The position numbers and the translations under genes were made by a program. From NCBI GenBank assembly GCA_964016885.1, contig OZ024764.1, positions 5,270,001 to 5,334,000 of the forward strand: a DNA stretch of 64,000 nt, read 5' to 3'. Origin of the DNA: Eledone cirrhosa (Eukaryota). Under the pieces are notes generated by a model. That model searched no databases and was not told the DNA's origin. It was given only the letters and a program-made list of their open reading frames with translations. Positions 1,478-60,541 of this stretch are shown here, in pieces (the stretch's first letter is position 1; every line of letters begins with the position of its first letter).

Positions 1478-2455
1478 TATAGGGTAGGATACTGTAGCGT
1501 AGGTTACCATAGGGCAAGTTACTGTAGGGTAGGTTACTATAGGGTAGGTTACCATAGGGTAGGTTACTGTCTGGTAGGTTACTGTAGGGTAGGTTACTGT
1601 CTGGTAGGTTACCATAGGGTAGGTTACTGTATGGTAGGTTACTGTAGGGTAGGTTACTGTATGGTAGGTTACCATAGGGTAGGTTACTGTAGGTTAGGTT
1701 ACTATAGGGTAGGTTACTATAGGGTAGGTTGCGATAGGGTATGTGACCATAGCGTAGGTTACTATAGGGTAGGTTACCATAGGGTAGGTTACTACAGTGT
1801 AGGTTATTATAGGGTAGGTTACCATAAGGTAGGTTATTATAGGGTAGGTTACCATAGGGTAGATTACTATAGTGTAGGTTACCATAGGGTAGGTTACCAT
1901 AGGGTAAGTTACCTCAGGGTAGGTTACTATAGGGTAGGTTACCATGGGGTAGGTTACCATAGGCTATATTATCATATGGTAGGTTACGGTAGGGTAGGTT
2001 ACTATAACATAGGTTACCATAGGGTAGATTACTATAGGGTAGGTTACCATAGGGTAGGTTACCATGGGGTAGGTTACCATAGGCTATATTATCATATGGT
2101 AGGTTACTATACGGTAGGTTACTGTAGGGTAGGTTACCATAAGGTAGGTTACTGTAGGGTAGGTTACCATAGGGTAGGTTAAGGTAGGGTAGGTTACTAT
2201 AACATAGGTTACCATAGTGTAGATTACCTTAAATTAGGCTACCATAGGGTAGGTTACTATAACATAGGTTACCATAGTGTAGGTTACCATAGGGTGGCTT
2301 TCCATGGGTTAGGTTACTATAGGGTTGGTTGCCATAGAGTAGGTTACCATGGAATAGGTTGCCATAGGGTATGTTACCATACCATAGGGCTGGTTATCAT
2401 AGGGTAGGTTATTATAAGGTAGGTTACCATATGTTTGTTAAGGTTAGGCTAGGCT
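1478..2455. repeat. 15-bp G-rich minisatellite, consensus AGGGTAGGTTACCAT
   Basis: Direct reading. Gives VGY.R / VTYP 5-aa periodic ORFs. Confidence 0.97.
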
Positions 2456-6886: not shown

Positions 6887-6928
6887 GAGACTTGATATGG
6901 AGAGAGATCTTTTATACTTCGATTATAG
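6887..6928 (+). CDS. Candidate micro-exon, 42 nt, phase 2-2: RLDMERDLLYFDY
   Basis: tttaactatattttttgtaatcacAG|gaga...ttatag|GTAAGT. Length is divisible by 3. Phase 0 has TGA. Confidence 0.7.
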
Positions 6929-7041: not shown

Positions 7042-7074
7042 GATATGCTTCACTAATATAAAAAAGAAATTGAT
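7042..7074 (+). CDS. Candidate micro-exon or pseudo-exon, 33 nt, phase 2-2: ICFTNIKKKL; original acceptor replaced
   Basis: Paralog of the 24338-24367 exon (+3 nt) with an intact GTAAGT donor. Upstream is SINE-derived gagatgatAG with no adjacent pyrimidine tract. Confidence 0.45.
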
Positions 7075-8129: not shown

Positions 8130-9812
8130 TCATTATCATTTTATGTCCGCTTTTCCCTGCTTGCAAGGGTAGGGCTCTCACCACCACTGGCCATGTTTTT
8201 CGTGGTCTTCCTTTTACTGGGATTTTTTAGCACCTCTTTACCCAGCAGTCATCCTCGATGCGCATCACTTGTCCATACCATCTCAGTCTTCTCTCCTGCA
8301 CACCACAACTCATCCCCAGTTTCTCTCTCAACTCATCTATGGTCTTGTCGTTCACGCACATTGACACACACACACACACACATATATATATATTAATTCT
8401 ATTGACTGATTAATAGCTCTTGTTAATTTTAAAACCATTCTGTTGAGAGCTTAATTCGTTCTGTGATATTTTGCAATTTTGCAATAACACACATACTGAA
8501 TTCATCCGCCAAAACTAAGGGCTGCCCCCCCCCCCCCTGTGAAGCCCCACGTGGGTTTTGATAACGGTCAGTCCTTGGCTTGGCACTGAACTAAAAGGCT
8601 GTTGAGAAAGTGACTTCCTTGTTCGATCATCATACCAAAAGCTTAACATTATTTGTCTAAGTAGACAGTACTTGATTTAGGAGTTGCAGAAACCCAATAC
8701 TGGATATTACCAACCTTCCAGGGGTCCGGGTATAATTTTCCATCATATTTTATTTGTTTTACTCGAATTACTTGGTCGTGTCTATGGCTGTGCGGATAAT
8801 TGTTTAACCATCGTCTCAGTGTGTTTGGCCTTTTAACTTATGTTGTTGCTCTAGTTCACTAGCTTCTATGGAGCGCCTGCCACACATCTCGGAAGTTGTT
8901 TTTCGTTAATTTCCAATAGCAGAAATGCAATTCTCGCTAATTTATATATATATATATATATATATATACACGTATAAGGGATAACAAAATATCGTTATAG
9001 GTAATCCAGGTAGAAGTTGTGAATACTCTGTATTGTGGTTAGTCTTAGTCTACGGCGTTGTTTGACTCAACAAGAGGTTTCCGTAGGTGGCAAGTATTTG
9101 AGTTCTCTTGAATTTCTATGTAAGTTTATCTTGGAGTAATAATATTGAAAGCGTGAAGAATAACATGGTCAACAGTACAAAAGAAGGTTTTTATTTACAG
9201 TATTAACAATTGTTTCACTGATTAAGTTGTCTAAAAATCGCTGAAAACTTAAAGCTGTGCCACTCAATCTACTATATATATTGGAAGTGGTCGGACGTTG
9301 TATATTTAAGTAAATAAGTAGGTGTAGTCGGATAAACGTCGAAACGGCTTGGTAGAATGCAGCGAAAATTTACACAGTTATGCAGAATTGTAGCAGTTAA
9401 TGATGATATATATGTAAAAGAAATAGGATTTCGCTTCAAGCATATCTTTATACAATATGTATAAATATTTTGTATCTCCAAAGAAATACGGTTTTAGGAA
9501 GCCTTAGCTCTGCAAACCCTGGGGGGCTAACGTCCTCTGGTGATGTCCAGCAGAAGCAAGGGGGACAACCGTCTATGCATTTCAGGCTTAACTGACCATC
9601 GTCTGGACAGTCCCTCCCACTGCTTGCGACTGCTGGCCAGTTAAGCGTGAAATGCATAGACGGTTGTCCCCCTTGCTTCTGCTGGACATCACCAGAGGCC
9701 TTGAAACCCTAAGTCCCTTTTGCTCTGTGTATGAACAGAAATAAATAATGTAATATATATATATGTATGTGTGTATCTATTTATATATTTAACTATTTTT
9801 TTCTCATTACAG

Positions 9813-9845
9813 CACCAATCATTCCTTCGCTTACAAGAAATTTAT
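9813..9845 (+). CDS. Candidate micro-exon, 33 nt, phase 2-2: TNHSFAYKKF
   Basis: tttaactatttttttctcattacAG|cacc...tttat|GTAAGT. Confidence 0.75.
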
Positions 9846-10894
9846 GTAAGTGTTACCTTAACAAACTGTCTAACCATTGTTTAATCTGCTCCTTCCTCTA
9901 CCTCTCCCTTTATACACACACACACATATATACCCCTATATATATATGTATACACACACACACACAAATATATACACATATATACATATATATATACACA
10001 CATATATATACATATATACAAGCGAGACACGGCCTGCTGACCAATCTCATCTTAAGTGGGACAAAACCGTCCAACCCATGCTAGCATGGAAGATGGACTT
10101 TAAATGATGATGATATATATACACTGACACATATATATACATATATACAAATATATATACGCATATATCTATATATATATATATGAGTTCAAGTCCGCCG
10201 AGGTTAACTTTGCCTTTCATCTTTACGAGGTCGATAAAATAAAGTACCAGTGGTGCACTGGGGTAATCGCTGGCCTTGTGCCAAAAGTAGAAACTATATT
10301 TATATATATATAACCAAAGATTAATATGGTTCGTTGATTACTCAACGAATACAGTTTTACAATAGATTAGAAGCACTCAACAGTGAAATTTTCCTGCAGT
10401 TTTTAATATTATTCAAAATATTAACAAATGAAAAATATTCTCATAATCAAAATATATACTTTATTATATACATTTCAAAGGTATATGACATACCTCTACG
10501 GTCTTGATTATTCAATTCCACTATTGGCAGTGACTATATATTTATAGGCAAAATGAATAATGAAAGAGTTGCAAGCCGTTAAAACATATCTTTATAAAGC
10601 TCTTACATATGTTATATATATATATATCATCATCATCATTATATGTCCGCTTTTCCCTGCTTGCAAGGGTAGGGCTCTCACCACCACCGGCCATGTTTTT
10701 TGTGGTCTTCCTCTACTGCGTCTTCCTTCTACTGGGATTTTTTAGCACCTCTTTACCCAGCGGTCATCCTCGATGCACATCACTCGTCCATACCATCTCA
10801 GTCTTCTCTCCTGCACATCACAACTTATCCCCAGTTTCTCTCTCAACTCATCTATGCTCTTGTCGTTCACGCACATTGACACACACACATACAC

Positions 10895-10925
<31 letters not shown>

Positions 10926-11254
10926 TATAAGGGATAACAAAATATCGTTATAGGTAATCCAGGTAGAGGTTGTGAATACTCTGTATTGTGGTTAGTCTTA
11001 GTCTACGGCATTGTTTGACTCAACAAGAGGTTTCCGTAGGTGGCAAGTATTTGAGTTCTCTTGAATTCCTATGTAAGTTTATCTTGGAGTAATATTGAAA
11101 GCGTGAAGAATAACATGGTCAACAGTACAAAAATAGGTTTTTATTTACAGTATTAACAATTGTTTCACTGATTAAGTTGTCTAAAAATTGCTGAACACTT
11201 GAAGCTGTGCCACTCAATTTTAAATATGTTGTTAGCTTAACCAGATCATCAGAA

Positions 11255-11321
<67 letters not shown>

Positions 11322-11799
11322 TACAAATTATGTCCATAGAACCATTTGATAAGATATATACACCATTTCCTCTCCCAATTAGCATAATCAACCACACAAA
11401 AAATCAATTAGGCCAGGCTATAAGATTAAAAGGCACCTATGATAAAATAGTAGATAAATAAACGACAGCATTTCAATAGCATGTGGAAATCAATTAAATA
11501 TATCGTCAACCATACACAATTAGGTATAAAATTAAAGTTAGAAGAAAAAATGCATATACACATACCAGGATTACGTTTCTACGCTTTAGGGTTTCGTTTG
11601 CATTTGGAAATATACTATCAAGGATAAATTCGATATAAATTCTATAAATTTATCAAGGATAAATTTATAGTATATTGCTCTGATTATTTAATTTATTAAT
11701 TCATCATTGAGCCACATCGTGAATGGTTGCCAAAAACATATATATCTATGACTTTGTCTAGTTTGTGTATATGTAAATCTTTATATTGATTGTTCCTTA

Positions 11800-14580
11800 T
11801 GTAGCACAGCCTTTCAGATTCCATCTTTGCGCACAAGTCTACAGCAAGCTGGTTGAAGAGTACTCTTGCACGGTGGAACAGCAACGTAGTAAGTAAGGCA
11901 ATCAAAGATATGAAGATGGGGAAGGCAACCGGTCCATCGGGTATAGCTGCCGAGATGCTGAAGGCATCTGGGTCTGTAGGTCACACTATAACCACACGTA
12001 TTGTTAACCAGGTAATACTAGAAGGTGTCATACCAAAAGATTGGTGCAGTAGCATCATTGTCAACTGCTACAAAAGTAAAGGTGATGCACTAGATAGAGG
12101 AAACTATAGAGGTATAAAGCTGATGGACCAGGTCATGAAAGTAACAGAAAGAGTTATAGCACAGTTGAAGAGGCACCACTGATGCCCTCTTCCTTGTCAG
12201 GCAGTTACAGGAAAAGTACCTAGCTAAAAGTAAGCCACTCTACCTGGCATTTGTCGACCTTGAGAAAGCCTTTGACAGAGTTCCACGTGCTGTAATCTGG
12301 TGGGCTCTTAGAAAACTAGGAGTAGATGAATAGCTTGTGAAAGTGGTACAAGCCATGTATAGGGGAGCAGTCAGCAAAGTTAGGATTAGCAATGAGTATA
12401 GCGAGGAATTTAGCGTACAGGTTGGGGTCCATCAGGGCTCTGTTCTTAGCCCCCTCCTGTTCATCATTGTCCTGCAGGCAATAACGGAGGACTTTAAGAC
12501 CGGATGCCCATGGGAACTCCTGTATGCTGATGACCTCGCACTTATAGCTGAATCTATGGTAGAACTAGAGAAGAAATTCCAAACTTGGAAGCAGGAACTA
12601 GAAAGAAAGGGTCTCAAAGTCAACATGACAAAGACTAAGGTCCTTGTAAGTAGACGAGAAAACAGAACCCAGATCCCCTCAGGGAAATGGCCTTGCTCAG
12701 TATGTAGGAACTCCATTCTCTGCCCCAAATGCAAACAATGAGTACACAAGAGATGTAGCGGGATCTCAGGAAGCTTAATTAAGAATGTAGGCTTCACATG
12801 CAGCAGCTGTGCTGGGACAGCAAGCAGCAAACAGCCACAGGAAACAAGTACCACCAATCTCTGGGAGGGCTCTGTAGAAACAGTAGACAGCTTCTGCTAC
12901 CTAGGTGACCGAATTAGCAGCGGAGGTGGGTGTTCAGAAAGTACAATAACTAGGGTAAGAATGGAATGGAAGAAGTTTAGGGAACTACTATCACTGCTAG
13001 CTGCAAAAGGCTTCTCCCTCAAAATGAAAGGCAGACTGTATGATGCGTGTATCCGAACAGCGATGTTGCATGGTAGTGAGACCTGGGCTCTGAAGGTGGA
13101 AGACTTACGTAGATTAGAGAGAAACGAAGCCTGCATGCTCCGATGGATGTGTAACAGTAATATACGCGAACGACAAAGCATAAATGAATTGAGAGACTGA
13201 GCATAAGAGGAATCAAATGCTGTGTGCAGGAGAGGCGGTTGCGCTGGTATGGACATGTGATGCGTATGAAGGATGACAGCTGCATAAAAAGGTGCAGAGC
13301 ACTAGAAGTCGATGGAAACCGCGGAGTGGAGTGACCCAAGATGAGGAGAGAAAGAGTGTGAGAGAGAGAGAGTGAGATAAAGAGAGGGAGTGAAAGAGAG
13401 AAATAGAGGGATTGAGAGAGATACATTAAAACAATAACAGAAGGTCTGACTGGAGAATTTACTTTAGAATTTTAAGAGAAAAGAGGAAGGTTTCAGACTT
13501 CTGGAATTCCTTCACGAAAATGTCCTATATATCTGGAACACAAACTTCAAAAAATGAGACAACCACTTAATAACCTATAGATCATGTGAGCCCACCAGCT
13601 AGATAGATTTCATTGTTACCAGAAGACAGAGTGACTGTTATAAACACAATGTCCCTCCCTAGTGAAGAATGCACCTCCCAAAATACCTTAGAAGACAACC
13701 TGGAAGAAAAGAGTAGAGATCAAAATCAAAAGGTCTTAAAGTCAATTTGGTAAAGACTAAAGTTCTAGTAAGTAGAAAGGAAAACTGGGCCCAGATCTCT
13801 TCAGGTAAACTGTCCTGCTCAGTGTGCAGAAAAGGAGTAGGTAGAAATTCCCATCCTATGTCCCATATAGAAATGATGGGTACACAAAAGATGTTGTGGG
13901 ATCTCAGGGAGGCTAACAAAGAACGTAGCTTCTACATGTGGCCAATGAACAGGAGCAGTAAATAACAAGAACTCTCAGGTTACAATCTCCTTCAAATACC
14001 CAGAAGTCTCTGTAGAGGTGGTAGATAGTTTCTGTTACCTAGGTGACTAAATCAGCAGTGGAGTAGGGTGGTCCAAAAATTCAGTAACCAGAGTGAGATT
14101 AGATTGGAGAAAGTGCAGGGATCTACTACTACTGCAAACTACAAAACATTTTTCCATCAAAATGAAGGGCAGACTGTATGACGCAGGTATACAAACAACA
14201 ATGTTGCACAGCAGCGAGACCTGGGCACTGTGTGTAGAAGATCTGTAAAGATTGGAAAGAAATGAGCCTCCATGCTTCAATGGATGTGCCATAGTAATAT
14301 ATGCAAATGGCAAAACATAAATGTACTGTGAGAGGATTTAGGCATAAGAGGGATTAGATGCAGTGTGCAGGAGTGGGATTGTTTTGGTATAGACATGTGA
14401 TGTGTATGAAGGGTGACAGCTGTATAAAAAGGTGCCAAACGCACAAAGTTGACAGAGGCCGTGGAGTGGGCAGGTCTAGGAAGACTTGGGATGAGGTAAG
14501 GAAAGCTGACTTTGTACAATTACACCTAGCTAAGGCAATGACACAGGATGGTGACCTCTGGCGCTATGCACAATTATAGA
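11800..14580 (+). mobile_element. Two decayed RTE LINE fragments (~11800-13340 with YADD; ~13440-14580)
   Basis: GKATGPSGIAAEMLK, NYRGIKL, GVHQGSVLSP, LLYADDL, with multiple stops and frameshifts. Confidence 0.9.
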
Positions 14581-14782
14581 GGACTACATCCACAATCCAC
14601 CAGACATTTTCCCTACCAACACCCCACACAAGTTCCCAAACCTCACCATAAAGTGGTCCCGCTGCAGCCATGACAAACGTGTCCAGTCCACACTGTACAG
14701 TGGTCTTGTAGGTGTCTTGCCAAAAATCAATATTGGGCCTTAAAACCTTGAGTCCCTTTTGTTCTGTGTATGAACATAAATA

Positions 14783-15117
14783 ATTGTTTCTAGTTTTGGC
14801 ACAAGGCCAGCAATTATCCAGTGCATTACTGGTACTTTATTTTATCGACCCCGTAAGGATGAAAAGCAAAGTTAACCTCGGCGGGATTTGAACTCAGATC
14901 ATACAAGGAGGTAACTATGCTTCAAAGCATGGCGTCCGACTCTCTACCGATACTGCCAATCCACCGCCTGAACATAAATAAATAATTGGTTCTACTTTAG
15001 GCACAAGGCCAGCAATTACCTAGTACATTACTGGTACTTTATTTTATCGACTCCGTAAGGATGAAAGGCAAAGTCAACCTCGGAGGGATTTGAACTCAGA
15101 TCGGAAAGGGACGTAAC
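14783..15117 (-). mobile_element. Two tandem tRNA-like SINE copies (copies ~28461-28795, ~43843-44177, ~60086-60420)
   Basis: Minus-strand A box TGGCAGTATCGG and B box GAGTTCAAATCC. Inserted in the aacataaataa motif upstream of the 42-nt exons. Confidence 0.75.
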
Positions 15118-15197
15118 TAAATAAATAATGTAGTATATATATATATATTTGTGTGTGTATCTATTTATATATTTAAGTATATTTTTTGTAATCACAG

Positions 15198-15239
15198 GAC
15201 TGATACAGAGGAGGGTACCGCTCCAGAAAATAATGACGA
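15198..15239 (+). CDS. Candidate micro-exon, 42 nt, phase 2-2: TDTEEGTAPENND
   Basis: attttttgtaatcacAG|gact...gacga|GTAAGT. Phase 0 is closed. Confidence 0.72.
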
Positions 15240-15551
15240 GTAAGTTTTACATACTATCTAACCATTATTCTATCTGTTCCTTCCCGTCTCTCTCTCTCTT
15301 TATATATATATATATATATATAGTAAGGTGTATTACTGGTTGTGTAAAACGGTCCAATAAATTTTTGTTAGCAATATTAAGTCTCCACGCTTTTGTATAT
15401 CTCCAATTCCATTCAAGGGAACAGCTAGATGATGTAAAACGGAGTATTTCTATCAAAATGAAAATCCGAAGGCAAGGTAAAATTTCCAATCATTTTAATC
15501 ACATCGTGATTAAAATGATTGGAAATCTTACCTTCCTTTGGATTTTCATTT

Positions 15552-15596
<45 letters not shown>

Positions 15597-15815
15597 TAAG
15601 TTAAAAATGTACATTTACATATGCATACTGAAATACTAGTGTGTATATGAATACACACACGTATACATATGTAGGTGTAACAAGTCTTTCACTGGTTGCT
15701 TTACTGTGAGCAACCCAGCTATTCCGTATGTAAACACACAGACAAACCGGTTTTTAGAGTCATACTGGTTTTCGGGGGAACACCTTCCCTCTATTCTCCA
15801 GAAAGTCAGACAAGG

Positions 15816-15860
15816 AATATTGAACTAGTTTCGTTGTTGTTACAACTCATCAGCAATATT
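15816..15860 (-). ncRNA. Minimal type I hammerhead ribozyme motif
   Basis: Reverse complement of the 16546-16590 motif. Confidence 0.75.
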
Positions 15861-16545
15861 TACCTATCTACCGGCCCCTCTGGAGAATTGTAAAAGCACA
15901 TATCGTTATATGCTTTTTCTATGAAAATTAGTAGTGGGCAGACTAATTTGCATAGAGTGTGAGTACGCACCGGTTCAGCGGAGACGATAAAAACAAATAA
16001 CAAAACGAAATTAAATTTCGTTTCGTTTGTAACTCACTTTTGTATGACTGACGCTTAAACAATTAAGTTAAAAATGTACATCTACATATGCATACTGAAA
16101 TACTAGTGTGTATATGAATACACACACGTATACATATGTAGGTGTAACAAGTCTTTCACTGGTTGCTTTACTGTGAGCAACCCAGCTATTTTGTATGTAA
16201 ACACACAGACAAACCGGTAGCTGGGTTGCTCACAGTAAAGCAACCAGTGAAAGACTTGTTACACCTACATATGTATACGTGTGTGTATTCATATACACAC
16301 TAGTATTTCAGTATGCATATGTAGATGTACATTTTTAACTTAATTATTTAAGCGTCAGTCATACAAAAGTGAGTTACAAACGAAACAAAATTTAATTTCG
16401 TTTTGTTATTTGTTTTTATCGTCTCCGCTGAACCGGTGCGTACTCACACTCTATGCAAATTAGTCTGCCCACTACTAATTTTCATAGAAAAAGCATATAA
16501 CGATATGTGCTTTTACAATTCTCCAGAGGGGCCGGTAGATAGGTA

Positions 16546-16590
16546 AATATTGCTGATGAGTTGTAACAACAACGAAACTAGTTCAATATT
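16546..16590 (+). ncRNA. Minimal type I hammerhead ribozyme motif
   Basis: AATATTG-CTGATGA-GTTG(taacaa)CAAC-GAAA-CTAG-TT-CAATATT: 7-bp stem I, intact core, 4-bp stem II, palindromic minimal stem III and a GUU cleavage triplet. Confidence 0.78.
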
Positions 16591-17012
16591 CCTTGTCTGG
16601 CTTTCTGGAGAATAGAGGGAAGGTGTTCCCCCGAAAACCAGTATGACTCTAAAAACCGGTTTGTCTGTGTGTTTACATACAAAATAGCTGGGTTGCTCAC
16701 AGTAAAGCAACCAGTGAAAGACTTGTTACACCTACATATGTATACGTGTGTGTATTCATATACACACTAGTATTTCAGTATGCATATGTAGATGTACATT
16801 TTTAACTTAATTGTTTAAGCGTCAGTCATACAAAAGTGAGTTACAAACGAAACGAAATTTAATTTCGTTTTGTTATTTGTTTTTATCGTCTCCGCTGAAC
16901 CGGTGCGTACTCACACTCTATGCAAATTAGTCTGCCCACTACTAATTTTCATAGAAAAAGCATATAACGATATGTGCTTTTACAATTCTCCAGAGGGGCC
17001 GGTAGATAGGTA

Positions 17013-17057
17013 AATATTGCTGATGAGTTGTAACAACAACGAAACTAGTTCAATATT
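17013..17057 (+). ncRNA. Minimal type I hammerhead ribozyme motif (467 bp after the previous copy)
   Basis: Identical to 16546-16590. Confidence 0.78.
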
Positions 17058-17389
17058 CCTTGTCTGGCTTTCTGGAGAATAGAGGGAAGGTGTTCCCCCG
17101 AAAACCAGTATGACTCTAAAAACCGGTTTGTCTGTGTGTTTACATACGGAATAGCTGGGTTGCTCACAGTAAAGCAACCAGTGAAAGACTTGTTACACCT
17201 ACATATGTATACGTGTGTGTATTCATATACACACTAGTATTTCAGTATGCATATGTAGATGTACATTTTTAACTTAATTGTTTAAGCGTCAGTCATACAA
17301 AAGTGAGTTACAAACGAAACGAAATTTAATTTCGTTTTGTTATTTGTTTTTATATATATATATATATATATATGACTCTGTCTCTTATA

Positions 17390-17657
17390 AACCACGTTGG
17401 CTATTATGACACTCTCTCCAACACAGAGAGCTATGTTGGCTAATATGACTATCTCTCTCTATGTTGGCTATTATGACTCTCTCTCTCTCTCTCTCTCCCT
17501 CCCTCTCTATGTTGGCTAATATGACTCTCTCTCTCCCTCTCTATGTTGGCTATTATGACTCTCTCTCTCTCTATGTTGGCTATAATGACTCTCTCTCTCT
17601 CTATGTTGGCTATAATGACTCTCTCTCTCTCTATGTTGGCTATTATGTCTCTCTCTG
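17390..17657. repeat. Compound minisatellite tatgttggctattatga(ct)n (copies ~29270-29540, ~44695-44932, ~60950-61160)
   Basis: Direct reading. Copy number and CT length vary among units. Confidence 0.9.
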
Positions 17658-18010
17658 TTCAAGGTTTATGAAGTTAGATGAACATCTTCAAAGTCCTCCC
17701 ATATTCGCCTCGTCTAATATGCGTTCTTGTACCTGATTATTTCCCCCAAATCTCCTGGGATGTTATAAACCATGATGGCTACCTATCTCACAATTTCTCT
17801 CCTGCCCACCCCCTCATACCACCATAGTCTATTCGACCAATCAAACCTCAGAAACATGTCCCCACCCATTACCAACCCCAACAAACTGCCATTACTACTA
17901 CTTCTACTTTTCTTCTAGCCCTTACCAGCCCCAACAAACCCTGACATTATTACTACTATTGTCCTTCTAGCCATGGGCTGAGGATAAATGGGGCTACCCC
18001 AAATTAATAA

Positions 18011-19050
18011 ATGAATATGAATCCGCAAGTTACCAAGCACCCATGCAAAGCTTTAATTCAGAGACAGGAAGCATACACACCCCACTGCAAAAATTCACCC
18101 TTTACCACGAATGGTGGCAAATGCCCAAAACTCCGAGTTGGAACCATCAATGTAAGCACAATGAAAGGAAGAGCAGGAGAAATTGTAGAGATGCTAGAGC
18201 GAAAGAAAATTGATGTATGCTGTGTGCAAGAGACTAGATGGAGAGCAGAGTCCGCTGGAGTCCTTGCAGGCAGAAGTCAGTGCTACCAATTTGTCTGGGT
18301 AGCAAATGACAACAGGATGGGAGGTGTAGCTATCCTATTAGCTGACAAATGGGTAGATAAGGTAATCTCAGTGAACAGGGTGAATGCAAGAATAATGAAA
18401 CTTGGACTAGTCCTGAATAAAACAATTGCCACAATAATATCAGCTTACGCACCCCAATTGGGGTTGCCAGCTGACTATAGCGGGGAATTTAGTTTAGAGG
18501 TCGGTGTCCACCAGGGCTCTGTTCTTAGCCCACTCCTGTTCGTTAAAGTATTGCAAGCAATAATGGCGGTGATTATGACCGGATGCCCATGGGAACTCCT
18601 ATATGCGGATCATCTCACACTTATAGCCGAATCTATGGTGGAACTATACTTGCTCAGTATGTAGGAAAGGAGTAGGCTGGCTGCAAAAGGTTTTCCCCTC
18701 AAAATGAAAAGCAGACTGTATGATGTGGGTATACGAATAGCAATGTTACATAGTAGTGAAACCTGGGCGCCGTCTGTGGAAGACTTGCATAGATTAGAAA
18801 GAAACGAAGCCTGCATGCTCCGATGGATGTGTAATAGTAATATACGCAAACGGCAAAGCATAAATGAATTGAGAGAGTGACTGAGCATAAGAGGAATGAA
18901 ATGCTGTGTGCAGGAGAGGATGTTGCATTGGACATGTGATGCGTATGAAGGATGACAGCTGTATAAAAAGGTGTAGAGCAGTAGAAGTCGATGGAAGCCG
19001 TGGAGTGGGGAGACCCAAGAAGAGCTGGGATGAGGTGATAAAAGCCGGAC
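18011..19050 (+). mobile_element. Deleted RTE LINE copy (unit 2)
   Basis: Near-identical to 24-1050. Confidence 0.9.
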
Positions 19051-19476
19051 TCACTGTAAATGAGGTTGGTGTTAGGAAGGGCATCCAGCTGTAGGAATCA
19101 AGCCAGAATCAGTTCCTGTATGAGCAAGACAAGGTCAGCTGAACAGACACTGCCCACAACAGGACAACCCGTCTAACCCATGCTTGCGTGGAAGAATGGA
19201 CGTAAAACAGTGATGAAGATGATATATCATATATGCTAGTGTACTATTTGACATTTGGAGCCTAAAAATATCTCTCCAAAACCAGGGGTCGACTTGTCTG
19301 CTGAATATAGTATGTTACCTTTACCACTGAGGGGTAAACAGTGAAACTGCCTGCCTAACACTTGTTGTACACCACTTACCATAACTCTAGCAACCCACCA
19401 CATTTATTTCTACTGAATCTCATATTTGTTAAGTTTAACGTAGAGATTATAGTAATATCAATGTCTTGCTGTAGCT

Positions 19477-20840
19477 TATAGGGTAGGTTACCATAGGGCA
19501 GGTTACTGTAGGGTAGGATACTGTCTGGTAGGTTACCATAGGGTAGGTTACTGTAGGGTAGGTTACTGTAGTGTAGGTTACTGTAGGGTAGGTTACTATA
19601 GGGTAGGTTACTGTAGGGTAGATTACTCTAGGCTAGGTTACCATAGGGTAGGTTACTGTAGTGTAGGTTACCATAGGGTAGGTTACCACAGAGTAGGTGA
19701 CCATAGGGTATGTTATTATAGGGTAGGTAACTGTAGGTTAGGTTACTGTAGGGTAGGTTACCTTATGGTAAGTTACTATAGGGTAGGTTACCATAGTGTA
19801 GGTTACCTTATGGTAAGTTACTATAGGGTAGGTTACCATAGGGTAGGTTACCTTATGGTAGGTTACTTTATGGTAAGTTACTATAGGGTAGGTTACCATA
19901 GGGTAGGTTACCTTATGGTAAGTTACTATAGGGTAGGTTACCATAGTGTAGGTTACCTTATGGTAAGTTACTATAGGGTAGGTTACCATAGGGTAGGTTA
20001 CCTTAGTGTAGGTAAGAATAGGGTAGGTTACCATAGGTTAGGTTACTGTAGGGTAGGTTAGCATAAGGTAGGTTACCATAGGGTAGGTTACTGTAGGGTA
20101 GGTTACCATAGGGTAGGTTACTGTAGGTAGGTTACCGTAGGTTAGGTTACTGTAGGGTAGGTTAACATAGGGTTGGTTACCATAGGTTAAGTTCATATAG
20201 GTTGTTACCATATGGTAGGTTACTGTAGGGTAGGTTGCTATAGGGTAGGTTATCGTAGAGTAGGTTACCATAAGGTAGGTTACCGTAGGGTAGGTTACTA
20301 TAGGGTAGGGTATCATAGGATAGGTTACCATAAGGCAGGTTACCATAGAGTAGGTTACCTTAGGGTAGTTTACTATAAGATAGGTTACCATAGTGTAGCT
20401 TACCATAGGGTAGGTTGTTACCATAGGCAAGGTTACTATAGGGTGGGTTACCATAGGGTAGTTTATGATATGGTTGGTTACCATAGTGTAGGTTACTATA
20501 ACATAGGTTACCATAGTGTAGGATACCTTAGATTAGGTTACCACAGGATAGGTTACTGTAGGTTAGGTTACCATAGGTTAGGTTAGCAATGGGTAGGTTA
20601 CTATAGGTTGTTACCATAAGGTAGGTTACTGTATGGTGGGTTACCATAGGGTAGGGTACCATAAAGTAGGTTATTATAGTGTAGGTTACCTTAGGATAGG
20701 TAACCATAGGGTAGGTTACTATGGGGTAAGTTACCATAGGGTAGGTTCCCATAGGGTAGGTTAACATAAGCTAGGTTACCTCAGGGTAGGTTACCATACC
20801 ATAAAGTAGGTTACCATAGGTTTGTTAAGGTTAGGCTAGG
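19477..20840. repeat. 15-bp minisatellite (second block in this unit at ~22306-22837)
   Basis: Direct reading. Confidence 0.97.
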
Positions 20841-21073
20841 CTGGTCTACTCGGTGAGTTAAAACTCACTTGTGACTGTAGTGTTTTAGAAGTGTCTCAAT
20901 CTTTCATGCACCACTAAATTTTTTAACTATTTCCCCTGAAACTGCCTTATTTTTGGGGGTCATCTTATCAATCGAATAGCGTCCTAAATCTAAATTATAC
21001 TTCAGAATTTTAGGGGCCGACTTATGTACCGGATAGACTTGTACACCGGCATATATGGTATATATATATATAT

Positions 21074-21412
21074 GCATGGAGGCACATGGCTTAGTGGTTA
21101 GAGCATTGGTCATGCAATCGAAAGGTTGTGAGTTCAATTCTCAGACCGGGTGATGTGTTGGTTCCTTGAGCAAGACACTTTATTTCACATTGCTCCAGTT
21201 TACTCAGCTGTAGAAATGAGATGATAGGGACTGGGGTCCCTATCATTCCACTGCAAAGTGGTCGTGGAGGTGCCACGGCAAAAAAAGCACCCAGCACTCA
21301 CTGTAAATGAGGTTGGTGACAGGAAGGGCATACAGCTGTAGAAATCAAGCCAGAATCAGTTCCCGTCCCGCCCTTGCAAGCAGGGAAAAGTGGACGTAAA
21401 ATGAAATGATGA
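21074..21412 (+). mobile_element. tRNA-derived SINE with an RTE-like 3' tail (copies ~32861-33200 and ~48453-48790)
   Basis: A box TGGCTTAGTGG, B box GAGTTCAATTC and tail ...gtggacgtaaaatgaaatgatga. Confidence 0.8.
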
Positions 21413-21439
21413 AAGAGAGATAGAGAGAAAGAGAGGGAG

Positions 21440-22306
21440 TGAGAGAGATACATTAAAACAATAACAGAAGGTCTGACTGGAGAATTTACTTTAGAATTCC
21501 TTCACGGAAATGTCTTATTTATCTGTAACACAAACTTCAAAAAACAAGACAACCACTTAATAACCGATAGATCAAGTGAGCCCTCCAGCTAGATAGATTT
21601 CATTGTTACCAGAAGACAGAGTGACTGTTATAAACACAAAGTCCCTCCCTAGTGAAGAATGCACCTCCCAAAATACCTTAGAATACAACCTGGAAGAAAA
21701 GAGTATAGATCAAAATCAAAAGGTCTTAAAGTCAATTTGGTAAAGACTAAAGTTCTAGTAAGTAGAAAGGAAAACAGGGCCCAGATCTCTTCAGGTAAAC
21801 TGTCCTGCTCAGTGTGCAGAAAAGGAGTAGGTAGAAATTCCATCCTATGTCCCATATAGAAATGATGGGTACACAAAAGATGTCGTGGGATCTCAGGGAG
21901 GCTAACAAAGAACGTAGCTTCTACATGTGGCCAGTGAACAGGGGCAGGAAATATCAAGAGCTCTCGAGTTACAATCTCCTTCAAATGCCCAGAAGTCTCT
22001 GCAGAGGTGGTAGATAGTTTCTGTTACTTAGGTGACTAAATCAGCAGTGGAGGAGGGTGGTCCAAAAACTCAGTAACAAGAGTGAGATTAGATTGGAGAA
22101 AGTGCAGGGATCTACTACTACTGCTAACTACAAAACATTTTTCCATCAAAATGAAGGGCAGACTGTATGATGCAGGTATACAAACAACAATGTTGCACAG
22201 CAGCGAGACCTGGGCACTGTGTGTAGAAGATCTGTAAAGATTGGAAAGAAATGAAGCCTCCATGCTTCAATGGATGTGCCATAGTAATATATGCAAATGG
22301 CAAAAC
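21440..22306 (+). mobile_element. Decayed RTE fragment cut by the 15-bp satellite (copies ~33230-34093 and ~48820-49685)
   Basis: Homologous to 13440-14320 and ends at ggcaaaacata|ggttacc. Confidence 0.85.
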
Positions 22307-22984
22307 ATAGGTTACCATTGGGTAGGTTACTGTAGGGTAGGGTACCATAGGGTGGGTTACCATAGCGTAGGTTACTGAATGGTAGGTTACATTTCGTTAG
22401 GTTACTGTAGGGTAGGTTACCATAGGGTAGGTTACCATAGGGTGGGTTACCATAGGGTAGGTTATTGTAGGGTAGGTTACCATAGGGTAGTTATGTAGGG
22501 TAGGTTACCATAGTGTAGGTTATGTAGGGTAGGTTACCATAGAGTAGGATACTGTAGGGTAGGTTACCATAGGGTAGTTATGTAGGGTAGGTTACCATAG
22601 TGTAGGTTACTGTAGGGTAGGTTACCATAGAGTAGGATACTGTAGGGTAGGTTACCATAGGTTATGTCACTGTAGGGTAGGTTACCATAGGGTAGGTTAT
22701 TATAGGGTAGGTTACCATAGGTTAGGTTACTATAGGGTTGGTTGCCATAGGGTATGTTACCATAGGGTAGGTTACTATAAGGTAGGTTACCATACCATAG
22801 GTTAGGTTACCATATGTTTGTTAAGGTTAGGCTAGGCTGGTTTACTCGGTGAGTTAAAACTCACTTGCGACTGTAGTGTTTTAGAAGAAGTGTCTTAATC
22901 TTTAGTGCGCCACTAAATTTTTTAACTATTTCCCCTGAAACTGCCTTATTTTTTGGGTGTCGTCTTATGAATCGAATAGTGTCG

Positions 22985-23928
22985 TATAGGACTATCTGGC
23001 ATGTTTTCTATGGCTGGATGCCCTTCCTAACACCAACCACGTTTACAGTGTGGAGACTGGGAGGTTTTTACCATGTTAACTACACGGCCAATTTACAGCG
23101 TGGACTGTGTGTTTTATTGTCATGACACCTACACAACCTCATTTATTTAGGACTGGATGTTGTGTGACCAACATAATTTAACAGAGATGGGGGTGGGAGT
23201 AGTGGGCTGGGGGCGTATATTTGGTTAAGAGGTGCCTACTGACTGTAGGTTTCGCTTTGTACTTAGGCAAGGGTGGTCTTCTGTATTACTGCGTAGCGCC
23301 AAAGATCTCGGTTCAGTGACATTGTCTTGGAGAGGTGTAAGTGTGTGAGATCGGAATTTATCAATTCGTCCCAGGGTTTTCTGGGTCTGCCTACTCCGTG
23401 GCTACCATCTATTTTGATCGCCCTGCACTTTTTTATACAGCTGTCGTCTTTCATGCGCATCACGTGACCATACCAACGTAGTCTTCTCTCGAGTAAACAA
23501 CATCTGATCCCTCTTATTCCTAATTTCTCACTTAGTTCATTTATGCTTTGCCGTTCACGTATATTACTATTACACATCCAGCGGAGCATGCAAACTTCAT
23601 TCCTCTCCAGTCTGCGTATATCCTCTGCACACAATGCCCAAGTCTCACTGCCATGTAACATTGTTGTTCGTATGCAGGCATCATACAGCCTGCCTTTCAT
23701 TTTTAGAGAGAACCCTTTAGCGGCCAATCGTACAATGAAAAGAGCGTCTGTGATACTTTTACCTGACACAAACCCAAACTGCATTTCATCTAGATCAATT
23801 CTCTCTCTGATTAGTTGCGCTATTACTTTTTCTGTGACCCTCATGAACTGGTCAATTAATTTAATGCCTCTATAGTTTCCCCTATCTAGGGCATCTCCTT
23901 TACCCTTGTAGCAGTTAATGATGATGAT
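22985..23928 (-). mobile_element. Internally deleted RTE fragment (copies ~34773-35716 and ~50247-51190)
   Basis: Derivative of 4620-6470 lacking the RT core (LFIVR joined to LAAKGF). Confidence 0.85.
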
Positions 23929-24337
23929 ATATATATAAAAGAAATAGGATTTCGCTTCAAGCATATCTTTATACAATATGTATAAATATTTTGTATCTCC
24001 AAAGAAATACGGTTTTAGGAAGCCTTAGCTCTGCAAACCCTGGGGGGCTAACATCCTCTGGTGATGTCCAGCAGAAGCAAAGGGGACAACCGTCTATGCA
24101 TTTCAGGCTTAACTGGCCATCGTCAGGACAGTCCCTCCCACTGCTTGCGACTGCTGGCCAGTTAAGCATGAAATGCATAGACGGTTGTCCCCCTTGCTTC
24201 TGCTGGACATCACCAGAGGCCTTGAAACCCTAAGTCCCTTTTGTTCTGTGTATGAACAGAAATAAATAATGTAATATATATATATATGTATGTGTGTGTA
24301 TCTATTTATATATTTAACTATATTTTTCTCATTACAG

Positions 24338-24367
24338 GATATGCTTCACTAATATAAAGAAATTGAT
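24338..24367 (+). CDS. Candidate micro-exon, 30 nt, phase 2-2: ICFTNIKKL
   Basis: tatttttctcattacAG|gata...ttgat|GTAAGT. Phases 0 and 1 both contain TAA, so only phase 2 is open. Confidence 0.75.
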
Positions 24368-25342
24368 GTAAGTGTTACCTTAACATACTGTCTAACCATT
24401 GTTTAATCTGCTCCTTCCTCTACCTCTCCCTTTATACACACACACACACACACATATATACCCCTATATATATATGTATACACACACACAAATATATACA
24501 CATATATACATATATATATACACACATATATATATAATCACATATATATATACATATATACAAGCCAGACACGGCCTGCTGACCAATCTCGCCTTAAGTG
24601 GGACAAAACCGTCCAACCCATGCTAGCATGGAAGATGGACTTTAAATGATGATGCTATATACACACTGACACATATATATACACATATATATACGCATAT
24701 ATTTATATATATATATGAGTTCAAGTCCGCCGAGGTTAACTTTGCCTTTCATCTTTACGAGGTCGATAAAATAAAGTACCAGTGGTGCACTGGGGTAATC
24801 GCTGGCCTTGTGCCAAAAGTAGAAACTATATATATATATATATATAACCAAAGATTAATATGGTTCGTTGATTACTCAACGAATACAGTTTTACAATAGA
24901 TTAGAAGCACTCAACAGTGAAAGTTTTCGTGAACTTTTTAATATTAACAAATGAAAAATATTCTCATAATCAAAATATATACTTTATTATATACATTTCA
25001 AAGGTATATGACATACCTCTACAGTCTTGATTCTTCAATTCCAGTATTGCAGTCACTGCCAATACTGGAATTGAAGAATCAAGACGGTAGCGCTATGTCA
25101 TAATCATATATTTTGTCTGATGAGGACGTACTGAAAAAACAACAATATATATAATAAAGTATATATTTTGATTATGCGAATATTTTTCATTTGTTAACAT
25201 TTTGAATAATATATATAAATATATATATATATAAACATATATATATATAAACATATATATATATATATATATGTATAGGTAAAATGAATAATGAAAGAGT
25301 TGCAAGCCGTTAAAACATATCTTTATAAAGCTCTTACATATG

Positions 25343-25380
<38 letters not shown>

Positions 25381-25612
25381 TCATTATCATTTTATGTCCG
25401 CTTCTCCCTGCTTGCAAGGGTTGGGCTCTCACCACCACTGGCCATGTTTTTCGTGGTCTTCCTTTTACTGGGATTTTTTAGCACCTCTTTACCCAGCGGT
25501 CATCCTCGATGCGCATCACTTGTCCATACCATCTGTGTTCTCTCCTGCACACCACAACTCATCCCCAGTTTCTCTCTCAACTCATCTATGCTCTTGTCGT
25601 TCACGCACATTG

Positions 25613-25644
<32 letters not shown>

Positions 25645-27062
25645 TAATTCTATCGACTGATTAATAGCTCTTGTTAATTTTAAAACCATTCTGTTGAGAG
25701 CTTAATTCGTTTTGTGATATTTTGCAATTTTGCAATAACACACATACTGAATTCATCCGCCAAAACTAAGGGCTGCCCCCCCCCCCCTGTGAAGCCCCAC
25801 GTGGGTTTTGATAACGGTCAGTCCTTGGCTTGGCACTGAACTAAAAGCCTGTTGAGAAAGTGACTTCCTTGTTCGATCATCATACCAAAAGCTTAACATT
25901 ATTTGTCTAAGTAGACAGTACTTGATTTAGGAGTTGCAGAAACCCAATACTGGATATTACCAACCTTCCAGGGGTCCGGGTATAATTTTCCATCATATTT
26001 TATTTGTTTTACTCGAATTACTTGGTCGTGTCTATGGCTGTGCGGATAATTGTTTAACCATCGTCTCAGTGTGTTTGGCCTTTTAACTTATGTTGTTGCT
26101 CTAGTTCACTAGCTTCTATGGAGCGCCTGCCACACATCTCGGAAGTTGTTTTTCGTTAATTTCCAATAGCAGAAATGCAATTCTCGCTAATTTATATATA
26201 TATATATATATATATATACACGTATAAGGGATAACAAAATATCGTTATAGGTAATCCAGGTAGAAGTTGTGAATACTCTGTATTGTGGTTAGTCTTAGTC
26301 TACGGCGTTGTTTGACTCAACAAGAGGTTTCCGTAGGTGGCAAGTATTTGAGTTCTCTTGAATTTCTATGTAAGTTTATCTTGGAGTAATAATATTGAAA
26401 GCGTGAAGAATAACATGGTCAACAGTACAAAAGAAGGTTTTTATTTACAGTATTAACAATTGTTTCACTGATTAAGTTGTCTAAAAATCGCTGAAAACTT
26501 AAAGCTGTGCCACTCAATCTACTATATATATTGGAAGTGGTCGGACGTTGTATATTTAAGTAAATAAGTAGGTGTAGTCGGATAAACGTCGAAACGGCTT
26601 GGTAGAATGCAGCGAAAATTTACACAGTTATGCAGAATTGTAGCAGTTAATGATGATATATATGTAAAAGAAATAGGATTTCGCTTCAAGCATATCTTTA
26701 TACAATATGTATAAATATTTTGTATCTCCAAAGAAATACGGTTTTAGGAAGCCTTAGCTCTGCAAACCCTGGGGGGCTAACGTCCTCTGGTGATGTCCAG
26801 CAGAAGCAAGGGGGACAACCGTCTATGCATTTCAGGCTTAACTGACCATCGTCTGGACAGTCCCTCCCACTGCTTGCGACTGCTGGCCAGTTAAGCATGA
26901 AATGCATAGACGGTTGTCCCCCTTGCTTCTGCTGGACATCACCAGAGGCCTTGAAACCCTAAGTCCCTTTTGCTCTGTGTATGAACAGAAATAAATAATG
27001 TAATATATATATATGTATGTGTGTATCTATTTATATATTTAACTATATTTTTCTCATTACAG

Positions 27063-27095
27063 CACCAAACCCTTTACCAAGTACGAGAATATTAT
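27063..27095 (+). CDS. Candidate micro-exon, 33 nt, phase 2-2: TKPFTKYENI
   Basis: ttttctcattacAG|cacc...attat|GTAAGT. Confidence 0.75.
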
Positions 27096-28875: not shown

Positions 28876-28917
28876 GACTGATACAGAGGAGGGTACCGCT
28901 CCAGAAAATAATGACGA
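28876..28917 (+). CDS. Candidate micro-exon, 42 nt, phase 2-2: TDTEEGTAPENND
   Basis: Identical to 15198-15239 with the same splice signals. Confidence 0.72.
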
Positions 28918-31338: not shown

Positions 31339-32627
31339 TATAGGGTAGGTTACCATACGGTAGGGTACTGTAGGGCAGGTTACCATAGGGCAGGTTACTG
31401 TAGGGTAGGATACTGTCTGGTAGGTTACCATAGGGTAGGTTACTGTAGGGTAGGTTACCTTGGGTAGGTTACTGTAGTGTAGGTTACTGTAGGGTAGGTT
31501 ACTGTATGGTAGATTACTCTAGGCTAGGTTACCATAGGGTAGGTTACTGTAGTGTAGGTTACCATAGGGTAGGTTACCACAGAGTAGGTTACCTTATGGT
31601 AGGTTACCTTATGGTAGGTTACCATAGGGTAGGTTACCTTATGGTAAGTTACTATAGGGTAGGTTACCATAGTGTAGGTTACCTTATGGTAAGTTACTAT
31701 AGGGTAGGTTACCATAGGGTAGGTTACCTTAGTGTAGGTGAGAATAGGGTAGGTTACCATAGGTTAGGTTACTGTAGGGTAGGTTACCATAAGGTAGGTT
31801 ACTGTAGGGTAGGTTACCATAGGGTAGGTTACTGTAGGGTAGGTTACCATAGGGTAGGTTACCATAGGGTAGTTTACCGTAGGTTAGGTTACTGTAGGGT
31901 AGTTTACCGTAGGTTAGGTTACTGTAGGGTAGGTTAACATAGGGTATGTTAGCATAGGGTTGGTTACCATAGGTTAAGTTCATATAGGTTGTTACCATAT
32001 GGTAGGTTACTGTAGGGTAGGTTGCTATAGGGTAGGTTATCGTAGAGTAGGTTACTATAAGGTAGGTTACCATAAGGTAGGTTACCGTAGGGTAGGTTAC
32101 TATAGGGTAGGGTATCATAGGATAGGTTACCATAAGGCAGGTTACCATAGAGTAGGTTACCTTAGGGTAGTTTACTATAAGATAGGTTACCATAGTGTAG
32201 CTTACCATAGGGTAGGTTGTTACCATAGGCAAGGTTACTATAGGGTGGGTTACCATAGGGTAGTTTATGATATGGTTGGTTACCATAGTGTAGGTTACTA
32301 TAACATAGGTTACCATAGTGTAGGATACCTTAGATTAGGTTACTGTAGGTTAGGTTACCATATGGTAGGTTACCATAGGTTAGGTTAGCAATGGGTAGGT
32401 TACTATAGGTTGTTACTGTATGGTGGGTTACCATAGGGTAGGGTACCATAAAGTAGGTTATTATAGTGTAGGTTACCTTAGGATAGGTAACCATAGGGTA
32501 GGTTACTATGGGGTAAGTTACCATAGGGTAGGTTCCCATAGGGTAGGTTAACATAAGCTAGGTTACCTCAGGGTAGGTTACCATACCATAAAGTAGGTTA
32601 CCATAGGTTTGTTAAGGTTAGGCTAGG
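31339..32627. repeat. 15-bp minisatellite (second block at ~34093-34624)
   Basis: Direct reading. Confidence 0.97.
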
Positions 32628-36122: not shown

Positions 36123-36200
36123 GAACACCACTAATTTCTCCGAAAAATTTATTACTTCTCTCCTATGCAACCTTCCCTCCAATGATTACAGTAAATTTAT
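36123..36200 (+). CDS. Candidate compound exon, 78 nt, phase 2-2: NTTNFSEKFITSLLCNLPSNDYSKF
   Basis: ttctcattacAG|gaac...tttat|GTAAGT. The first 30 nt match the 51598 exon (1 difference) and the last 33 nt resemble the 9813 exon. Confidence 0.72.
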
Positions 36201-38890: not shown

Positions 38891-38920
38891 TCCAACAGCT
38901 ACTACTTCCCTGAAATTTAT
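38891..38920 (+). CDS. Candidate micro-exon, 30 nt, phase 2-2: PTATTSLKF
   Basis: tttttttctcattacAG|tcca...tttat|GTAAGT. Phase 1 has TGA. Confidence 0.75.
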
Positions 38921-44257: not shown

Positions 44258-44299
44258 GACTGATACAGAGGAGGGTACCGCTCCAGAAAATAATGACGA
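44258..44299 (+). CDS. Candidate micro-exon, 42 nt, phase 2-2: TDTEEGTAPENND
   Basis: Identical to 15198-15239 with the same splice signals. Confidence 0.72.
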
Positions 44300-51597: not shown

Positions 51598-51627
51598 GAA
51601 CACCACTAATTTCTCCGAAAAATGTAT
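51598..51627 (+). CDS. Candidate micro-exon, 30 nt, phase 2-2: NTTNFSEKC
   Basis: tatttttctcattacAG|gaac...tgtat|GTAAGT. Phase 0 has TAA. Confidence 0.75.
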
Positions 51628-54331: not shown

Positions 54332-54361
54332 TCCCACAACTACTACTTCCATGAAATTTAT
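54332..54361 (+). CDS. Candidate micro-exon, 30 nt, phase 2-2: PTTTTSMKF
   Basis: tttttttctcattacAG|tccc...tttat|GTAAGT. Phase 1 has TGA. Confidence 0.75.
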
Positions 54362-60499: not shown

Positions 60500-60541
60500 G
60501 ACTGATACAAAGGAGAGTACCGCTCTAGAAAAGAATGAGGA
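60500..60541 (+). CDS. Candidate micro-exon, 42 nt, phase 2-2: TDTKESTALEKNE
   Basis: tttaactatattttttgtaatcacAG|gact...gagga|GTAAGT. Phases 0 (TGA) and 1 (TAG) are closed. Confidence 0.75.

Follow-up and report, generated by a model that had tools for sequence, protein, structure and literature searches.

How can the small exons of a gene come to differ strongly while the introns around them remain almost identical? This question is raised by a 64-kb stretch of the 3.0-Gb genome of the octopod Eledone cirrhosa (contig OZ024764.1, here C25, positions 5270001-5334000), which is referred to below as the window. The original prediction made on the window described duplicated exons whose divergence is confined between the splice sites, and it offered two explanations: strong diversifying selection combined with intron homogenization by gene conversion, or a mechanism that replaces or mutates only the exon. 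We found that the window belongs to a 528-kb array of 102 candidate microexons (C25:4871418-5399532), which lies upstream of the constant exons of a divergent gene of the M13 (neprilysin-like) family. This gene is called locus 1, and its three paralogs are called loci (or paralogs) 2 to 4. Coordinates are those of C25 throughout, except where positions in the window are indicated. The microexons are candidates read from genomic sequence alone, and this is also the basis for what is said about their use and splicing.

Candidate microexon array and exon-confined divergence

The array consists of 48 microexons of classes A and B (A/B) and 54 of class C. The classes follow each other in mixed order, and no exon is inverted relative to the coding strand. 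Neighboring exons are spaced by a median of 6 kb, and the exons sum to 1347 codons. Thirteen of these microexons lie in the window. A genome-wide search with the A/B donor-flank pattern returned 51 matches, all on C25 (i.e., 48 on the forward strand at 4.871-5.400 Mb and 3 on the reverse strand at 7.23-7.30 Mb), and the control returned 0. The class C acceptor pattern had 64 matches, including 54 in locus 1, 3 in an inverted copy, and 7 at 25.08-25.15 Mb. The A/B exons are 30, 33, 36, or 78 nt long (five of them 78 nt), and 52 of the 54 class C exons are 42 nt long with the usual donor.

Every microexon is symmetric (phase 2-2) and open in one common frame. All 51 A/B exons (48 in locus 1 and 3 in the inverted paralog) have a length that is a multiple of 3 and an open frame +1. 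Many copies are identical, with 34 distinct sequences among 48 A/B exons and 20 among 52 C exons. Among the distinct sequences, which include relatives and therefore do not count independently, 34/34 of A/B and 20/20 of C are open in frame +1, while the other two frames are open in 14/34 and 21/34 A/B sequences and in 0/20 and 12/20 C sequences; shuffled exons are open in less than half of cases. Defects were seen at a few splice sites: 1 of the 54 class C donors is dead (GA) and 1 is altered, and 4 A exons among the 48 A/B exons have lost the normal acceptor flank by deletion.

The divergence described in the original prediction was recovered in the window and extends across the array. The two class B exons at window positions 9813-9845 and 27063-27095 have 13 differences over 33 bases, whereas their flanks differ at 1 of 150 positions upstream and 0 of 150 downstream, and further out at 2 of 400 and 1 of 400; all of the peptides that had been named were found at their exons. 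For the 44 A/B cassettes whose acceptor is standard, the mean pairwise difference is 0.448 for exons (39 exons of ≤36 nt, with the five 78-nt exons left out) compared with 0.020 upstream and 0.028 downstream (420 bases). The divergence is indeed bounded by the splice sites, since the 12 bases outside each site are invariant and the first exon base has a heterozygosity of 0.6. In a check for non-exonic peaks in 28 long self-alignments of the window, the mismatch level was 0.205 for exons, compared with 0.050 for tandem repeats and 0.011 for the remaining unique DNA. The 94 peaks (≥7 mismatches per 30 bases) comprised 13 exons and 81 tandem repeats, with no comparable peak in other unique DNA. 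The original prediction did not include the five class C exons of the window (6887, 15198, 28876, 44258, and 60500) or the host gene, both of which were found here.

Host gene and paralogs

Exon candidates downstream of the array, which were picked with splice-site scores made for this analysis, form a phase-consistent chain. A hydrophobic, predicted transmembrane (TM) exon (C25:5413283-5413395) is located 14 kb after the last cassette and starts in phase 2, matching the cassettes. It is followed by a PCxDF-like exon and has counterparts in the three paralogs; in its predicted orientation, it would serve as a type II signal anchor in front of the ectodomain. Further downstream on the same strand, the last exon (C25:5629399-5629497) matches the C-terminal M13 domain PF01431 with 25.2 bits (cut-off, 24.5), and the exon at 5617950-5618075 and an exon of paralog 2 score 21.5 and 25.5 bits, respectively. 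For the N-terminal M13 domain PF05649, an upstream constant exon matches positions 344-372 weakly (E = 0.0099, below the cut-off), and four other exons gave no match. The HExxH exon matches ECE1 and neprilysin among Protein Data Bank (PDB) structures (E = 0.004-0.03). In an alignment with an octopus ECE2-like protein, the PCxDF-like exon, E6, the HExxH exon, E10, the ENIAD exon, E13, and the last exon align in order; the other middle exons did not. For comparison, a canonical M13 exon of the same genome is 88% identical to that of Octopus vulgaris and 77% identical to that of Argonauta. Homolog searches with a 59-residue constant exon as the query were without a match, and one repetitive protein from a profile search was judged to be a chance match.

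The HExxH motif reads HKIFH in locus 1 and HEIFH, HQIFH, and HEIFH in paralogs 2, 3, and 4. Two of the four loci retain the catalytic Glu, and the other two have replaced it independently, with Lys in locus 1 and with Gln in locus 3. The histidine of the HSP motif is Tyr (YSP) in loci 1 and 2. The third zinc ligand motif, ENIAD, is kept (approximately C25:5624789), as are the paired cysteines and many N-x-S/T sequons of the M13 domain. A search of the complete interval in paralog 2 did not reveal the exon with the VNAxY substrate motif; in locus 1, the interval was covered apart from 68 kb. Neither the 54 distinct microexons nor the constant exons found contain a stop or a frameshift. The host is a divergent M13/neprilysin-like gene with damaged catalytic residues, and the encoded protein is probably a pseudo-peptidase.

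M13 proteins are, as a family, type II membrane proteins. Because the array directly precedes the TM exon of such a protein, the microexons would encode its cytoplasmic tail. The net charge of the last six residues is ≥0 in 48/48 A/B peptides (34 positive) and ≤0 in 52/52 C peptides (0 positive), a difference between basic or neutral and acidic or neutral ends that is expected if A/B exons abut the membrane. Yxx-hydrophobic motifs, which are known for roles in sorting and SH2 binding, occur 16 times in A/B peptides compared with 4.4 in shuffles, although this count, like that of the sequons, is inflated by related exon families.

The paralogs carry far smaller sets, with 6 microexons in locus 2, 1 in locus 3, and 9 in locus 4. 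Locus 2 is an inverted duplicate of both flanks (97-99%). The sole microexon of locus 3 is of A type, encodes many basic residues and cysteines, and precedes the TM exon by 1.1 kb. Locus 4, of which only parts of the 5' region were covered, has 7 near-identical C exons and 2 A exons. Paralogs 3 and 4 show the ancestral layout. Both have a short first coding exon that ends in phase 2, and in locus 4 the original ATG is altered but the phase is maintained by a new one, which argues that this exon is a real start. The exon lies within a dispersed repeat, for which the best match elsewhere is the copy in locus 4. Upstream of the start exon, a stretch of about 115 bp is all that locus 1 and both 5' blocks of locus 2 retain before they diverge. 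Start-exon candidates in locus 1 (e.g., C25:4854891 and 4870373) are inside repeats and were unconvincing. In loci 1 and 2, the expected position of the start exon is occupied by an AT-rich insert (C25:4869021-4870170) ending in CTGATGA...GAAA, which we take to be a putative hammerhead-like motif of a Penelope-like element.

Three further observations concern the surroundings of these loci. A weak PF01431 match on the reverse strand (C25:24978256-24978339) may represent a fifth member of the divergent subfamily. An intron of locus 1 is filled by a 46-bp satellite that extends over 80 kb or more (C25:5458400-5544000 and beyond), whereas locus 2 contains only 6 kb of it. An intronic, sense-strand open reading frame of 508 residues (C25:5422143-5423666) resembles ORF1 of a long interspersed nuclear element.

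The features of the window are listed in Table 1. The palindromic element upstream of the first class B exon, which resembles a miniature inverted-repeat transposable element (MITE), is also present in seven further A/B cassettes; the arms differ by 0-1 mismatches per 50 in the copies scored, and the element is young. We considered this hairpin as a splicing selector (z = -18.7), but its arm has 1021 exact matches genome-wide, so that it is not cassette specific, and no copy was seen in the flanks of paralog 3 or 4. A 15-bp minisatellite (about 77% matches) is present in every large unit (window positions 1478-2431, 19478-20798, 22308-22794, 31340-32585, 34095-34582, 46756-48177, 49687-50056, and 62984-63921). 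At window positions 15592-17353, a local inverted repeat (15592-16218 versus 17281-16655, 99.7%) flanks a 467-bp tandem duplication.

Table 1. Candidate exons and other features of the 64-kb window (window positions)
Feature	Positions	Strand	Remarks
Middle of the 528-kb microexon array, 5' part of the M13/neprilysin-like gene	1-64000	+	Constant exons downstream of the window
Class C microexon, 42 nt, phase 2-2, RLDMERDLLYFDY	6887-6928	+	
Class A microexon, 33 nt, ICFTNIKKKL	7042-7074	+	Usual acceptor flank deleted; 113 nt after C exon; purine-rich acceptor, probably weak
MITE-like palindromic element, 165 bp	9534-9698	.	About 115 bp 5' of class B exon
Class B microexon, 33 nt, TNHSFAYKKF	9813-9845	+	
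Class C microexon, 42 nt, TDTEEGTAPENND	15198-15239	+	
Class A microexon, 30 nt, ICFTNIKKL	24338-24367	+	
Class B microexon, 33 nt, TKPFTKYENI	27063-27095	+	
Class C microexon, 42 nt, TDTEEGTAPENND	28876-28917	+	
78-nt exon	36123-36200	+	Probable in-frame fusion, judged from the sequence: 30-nt A + 15 nt like an acceptor remnant + 33-nt B
Class B microexon, 30 nt, PTATTSLKF	38891-38920	+	
Class C microexon, 42 nt, TDTEEGTAPENND	44258-44299	+	
Class A microexon, 30 nt, NTTNFSEKC	51598-51627	+	
Class B microexon, 30 nt, PTTTTSMKF	54332-54361	+	
Class C microexon, 42 nt, TDTKESTALEKNE	60500-60541	+	

Proposed selection and conversion, and competing explanations

The explanation that we favor, with somewhat better than even confidence in it as a whole, is that symmetric tail microexons have been duplicated, converted, and diversified and are variably included ahead of the TM exon. 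Two ancestral tail exons, one distal (C) and one juxtamembrane (A/B), would have given rise to the 102 copies by tandem duplication and unequal crossover. Ectopic gene conversion would keep the flanks alike and shuffle pieces of exons, and diversifying selection on the tail peptide would keep and add exon variants. If the gene is expressed in this way, a transcript would begin the tail with some of the C exons, continue with one or a few of the A/B type, and then reach the TM exon; many isoforms are most likely, because any subset of exons preserves the frame. One extracellular domain would thereby be joined to many cytoplasmic tails. The selective agent may be an intracellular antagonist, or sorting or signaling through the Yxx-hydrophobic motifs.

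Recombination among the flanks is extensive. Four-gamete failures among flank single-nucleotide polymorphisms (SNPs) amounted to 60/300 upstream, 32/78 downstream, and 83/325 between the two sides, and very different exons occur within almost one flank haplotype (1-2 SNPs apart). The exon at C25:4955376 is a mosaic, and its flanks are B-type except at +18, where the base is A-type. In pairwise comparisons of C exons, in which the pairs are not independent, the proportion of nonsynonymous differences (pN) exceeds that of synonymous differences (pS) in every bin of rising divergence (pN of 0.074, 0.199, and 0.382 versus pS of 0.002, 0.023, and 0.078; flanks, 0.008-0.016), and the pS of close pairs is near the flank rate of 0.009. 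A/B silent changes exceed the flank-rate prediction even among close variants (6 in 94 sites versus 0.007, P = 6e-5; also P = 3e-8), an excess that conversion of flanks around older exons would give as well. Overall, the evidence fits tandem duplication, gene conversion, and diversifying selection.

Outside the cassettes, the TM exon differs by 28-35% between loci 1, 3, and 4 within introns that differ by 0-7% (C25:5413283-5413395, 7498831-7498919, and 25176278-25176375), while the luminal exons E0 and E1 differ by only 1-13%. The pattern of exon over intron divergence is thus not special to the cassettes, since a single-copy exon shows it too. Fourteen constant exons were compared between loci 1 and 2, a set that excludes the PCxDF exon with its 6-nt in-frame indel as well as the ENIAD exon, the last exon, and the end of E12. 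They carry 13 nonsynonymous changes and a single silent one (P = 0.049 when set against the flank rate). Both indels between these loci are in frame. We read these data as selection that acts on the tail and the TM segment, while conversion homogenizes flanks and shuffles exon parts; an exon-directed mutator would not be needed.

Several results weigh against this explanation. Its main weakness is the start exon, which is absent from the matching place in locus 1 and paralog 2 (57% of the array covered), with no replacement found. The A/B peptides contain 20 sequons compared with 9.2 in shuffles (exons non-independent), which is odd for a cytoplasmic tail. On the tree edges of C exons, the nonsynonymous-to-synonymous counts of 24:2 and about 56:8 are not significant (P = 0.059 and 0.054), so that the excess of amino acid change is suggestive only. 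Over all tree edges of A/B exons, pS (0.19) is about equal to pN (0.17). The frequent identical copies weaken selection per copy, and the 13:1 count of the constant exons is not significant by itself (P = 0.19). Use of the array is, moreover, a prediction from the genome. The selection and conversion proposed in the original prediction have partial support from the pN of C exons far above pS, the four-gamete failures, and the mosaic exons, but the tests on independent tree edges are borderline.

A further possibility, which we regard as rather improbable, is a cytoplasmic cassette of Dscam scale on a catalytically dead neprilysin-like protein. About 100 microexons would be spliced combinatorially and refreshed by exon-centered conversion or by an exon-directed mutator (possibly somatic), and tails with different tyrosine motifs would form an immune, gamete, or self-recognition device. 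Alternatively, all or nearly all exons may be spliced constitutively into one low-complexity tail of about 1350 residues, with one repeat per exon and with variation due to fast repeat evolution. Such a tail would be in line with the exon sum, with the seven near-identical C exons of paralog 4, which resemble a repeat protein, and with the persistence of five in-frame A+B fusion exons, which indicates tolerance of two consecutive juxtamembrane exons. In addition, docking or selector RNA pairing was not found, although no systematic search for long-range pairing was made, and the sole strong hairpin examined is self-contained and a genome-wide element. We nevertheless consider constitutive splicing unlikely, as exons of 30-42 nt spaced at 6 kb would, on general knowledge, hardly all be included, and A/B exons deep in the array keep their basic ends. 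Decay into a pseudogene, with exon diversity as a relic of earlier selection that is now moved by neutral duplication and conversion, is likewise an unlikely account. The missing start exon, the HKxxH motif, the VNAFY-type exon not found in the fully covered interval of paralog 2, and the damaged donors (2 of 54 C exons) and deleted acceptors (4 of 48 A/B exons) would agree with it. However, the reading frames are intact, both indels that separate loci 1 and 2 preserve the frame, the catalytic Glu is also replaced in paralog 3, whose start exon remains, and neutral concerted evolution should wear down exon and flank diversity equally fast.

The second explanation of the original prediction, taken here as an exon-directed process that rewrites only the sequence between splice sites, by hypermutation or templated replacement in the germline or soma and perhaps through RNA or cDNA, would account for the base-exact boundaries, the A/B silent excess, the very different exons in flanks 1-2 SNPs apart, and the pS of 0.19-0.53 of the TM exon between paralogs. 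We judge it quite improbable, because the pS of closely similar C exons hardly departs from the flank rate, no stop has arisen even though one is present in about half of the exons after shuffling, and the sharp edges are explained by splice-site constraint together with conversion. A signature of RNA editing or cDNA was also rejected: the A/B changes have no A-to-G bias, and all six substitution types occur. On close edges of class C, A/G accounts for 11 of 23 changes, unpolarized. An extracellular position of the microexon region in locus 1 (i.e., a mucin-like, glycosylated stalk or a secreted peptide behind a new signal exon, with selection on an exposed surface) would suit the Thr/Ser/Asn-rich A/B peptides with their sequon excess and a locus without the ancestral start exon. 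It is very improbable, given that the sole hydrophobic segment found directly follows the array, that the paired cysteines and sequons would place the M13 domain on the luminal side, and that C exons contain 0 sequons versus 4.6 expected. To an assembly artifact we give hardly any credence, despite the highly repetitive region: errors would not yield 100 codon-multiple exons open in one frame, cassette sub-families have private flank SNPs in common, and related exons are found in three paralogs, one of them 20 Mb away. Two other candidates were rejected, namely, an alpha-2-macroglobulin bait region (PF00207 has seven matches, none on C25) and a separate small gene in each cassette (no further exon candidates turned up in the units, and one TM exon serves the array).

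Relation to known exon arrays

The very small symmetric exons (30-42 nt, five of 78 nt, phase 2-2) resemble those of the schistosome micro-exon genes (MEGs). The MEG literature describes symmetrical microexons with protein variants proposed to arise by alternative splicing, high ratios of nonsynonymous to synonymous substitution (dN/dS), and transposon-rich loci, as well as secreted, mostly microexon-coded proteins that are said to be restricted to flatworms (PMC4350168, PMC10526429). In contrast, the array of 102 exons described here is joined to conventional exons of an M13 type II membrane protein in an octopod, and its cassettes are near-identical tandem duplicates. The variable exons of Dscam are old parts of extracellular immunoglobulin domains, approximately 100-300 nt long. 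A large tandem array of alternative exons built by duplication is common to our locus, the Dscam1 clusters, and the 5' cassettes of chelicerate sDscam (PMC4835542). Unlike these, the present exons are 30-42 nt long, have young flanks, and are predicted to be cytoplasmic, and docking structures were not found in the limited search noted above, which did not cover pairing systematically.

Brown algal ROCO leucine-rich-repeat arrays have one repeat per exon, a dynamic tandem array, diversifying selection, inactivated exons, and reported alternative splicing; their 72-nt exons fold into a ligand-binding repeat, and inverted copies are present (PMC3341825, PMC11378527). One repeat per exon, a dynamic tandem array, and inactivated exons recur here, with probable diversifying selection and predicted alternative splicing. 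Our array, however, lacks inverted copies among its 102 exons, which encode short, unstructured peptides. Duplicates with exons more divergent than introns are also familiar from intron-homogenized gene pairs, such as the opsin case. Accelerated exon evolution is also reported for venom gene families (Nakashima 1993/1995, cited in PMC4963849). Those examples are whole duplicated genes, whereas here the effect is strongest among internal cassettes of one gene and affects the tail and the TM exon rather than the extracellular domain.

With neprilysin, ECE, and Kell of the M13 family, the host gene has in common the order of short tail, TM, PCxDF-like, HExxH, ENIAD, and C-terminal exons. It departs from them in its strong divergence, in the replaced Glu (two of four loci) and HSP histidine (loci 1 and 2), in the VNAxY exon not found in paralog 2, and in the multiplied tail exons. 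Tail isoforms are known for ECE-1. In the sections available, octopus papers that name neprilysin merely list transcripts (PMC12607849, PMC6522055), and PMC11703226 is unrelated. No description of the gene or the array was found in the literature searched, which did not extend to subscription journals and preprint supplements. In its predicted function the array would be most like the MEGs and the ROCO and Dscam exon arrays, as a member of none of them, and it looks like an undescribed device for varying an inner tail.

Large arrays of variable exons are known from few genes, in which nearly always an exposed binding surface is varied; here, the variation appears to concern the inner tail of a protein that belongs to a peptidase family but is probably inactive. 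The tail cassettes and the equally fast TM exon may point to a conflict or a signaling code at the cephalopod membrane. The array is young, with flanks about 2% apart and loci of 1, 6, 9, and 102 exons, and represents a test case for the origin of such arrays. It also allows one to ask whether selection and conversion suffice to produce base-exact, exon-only divergence.

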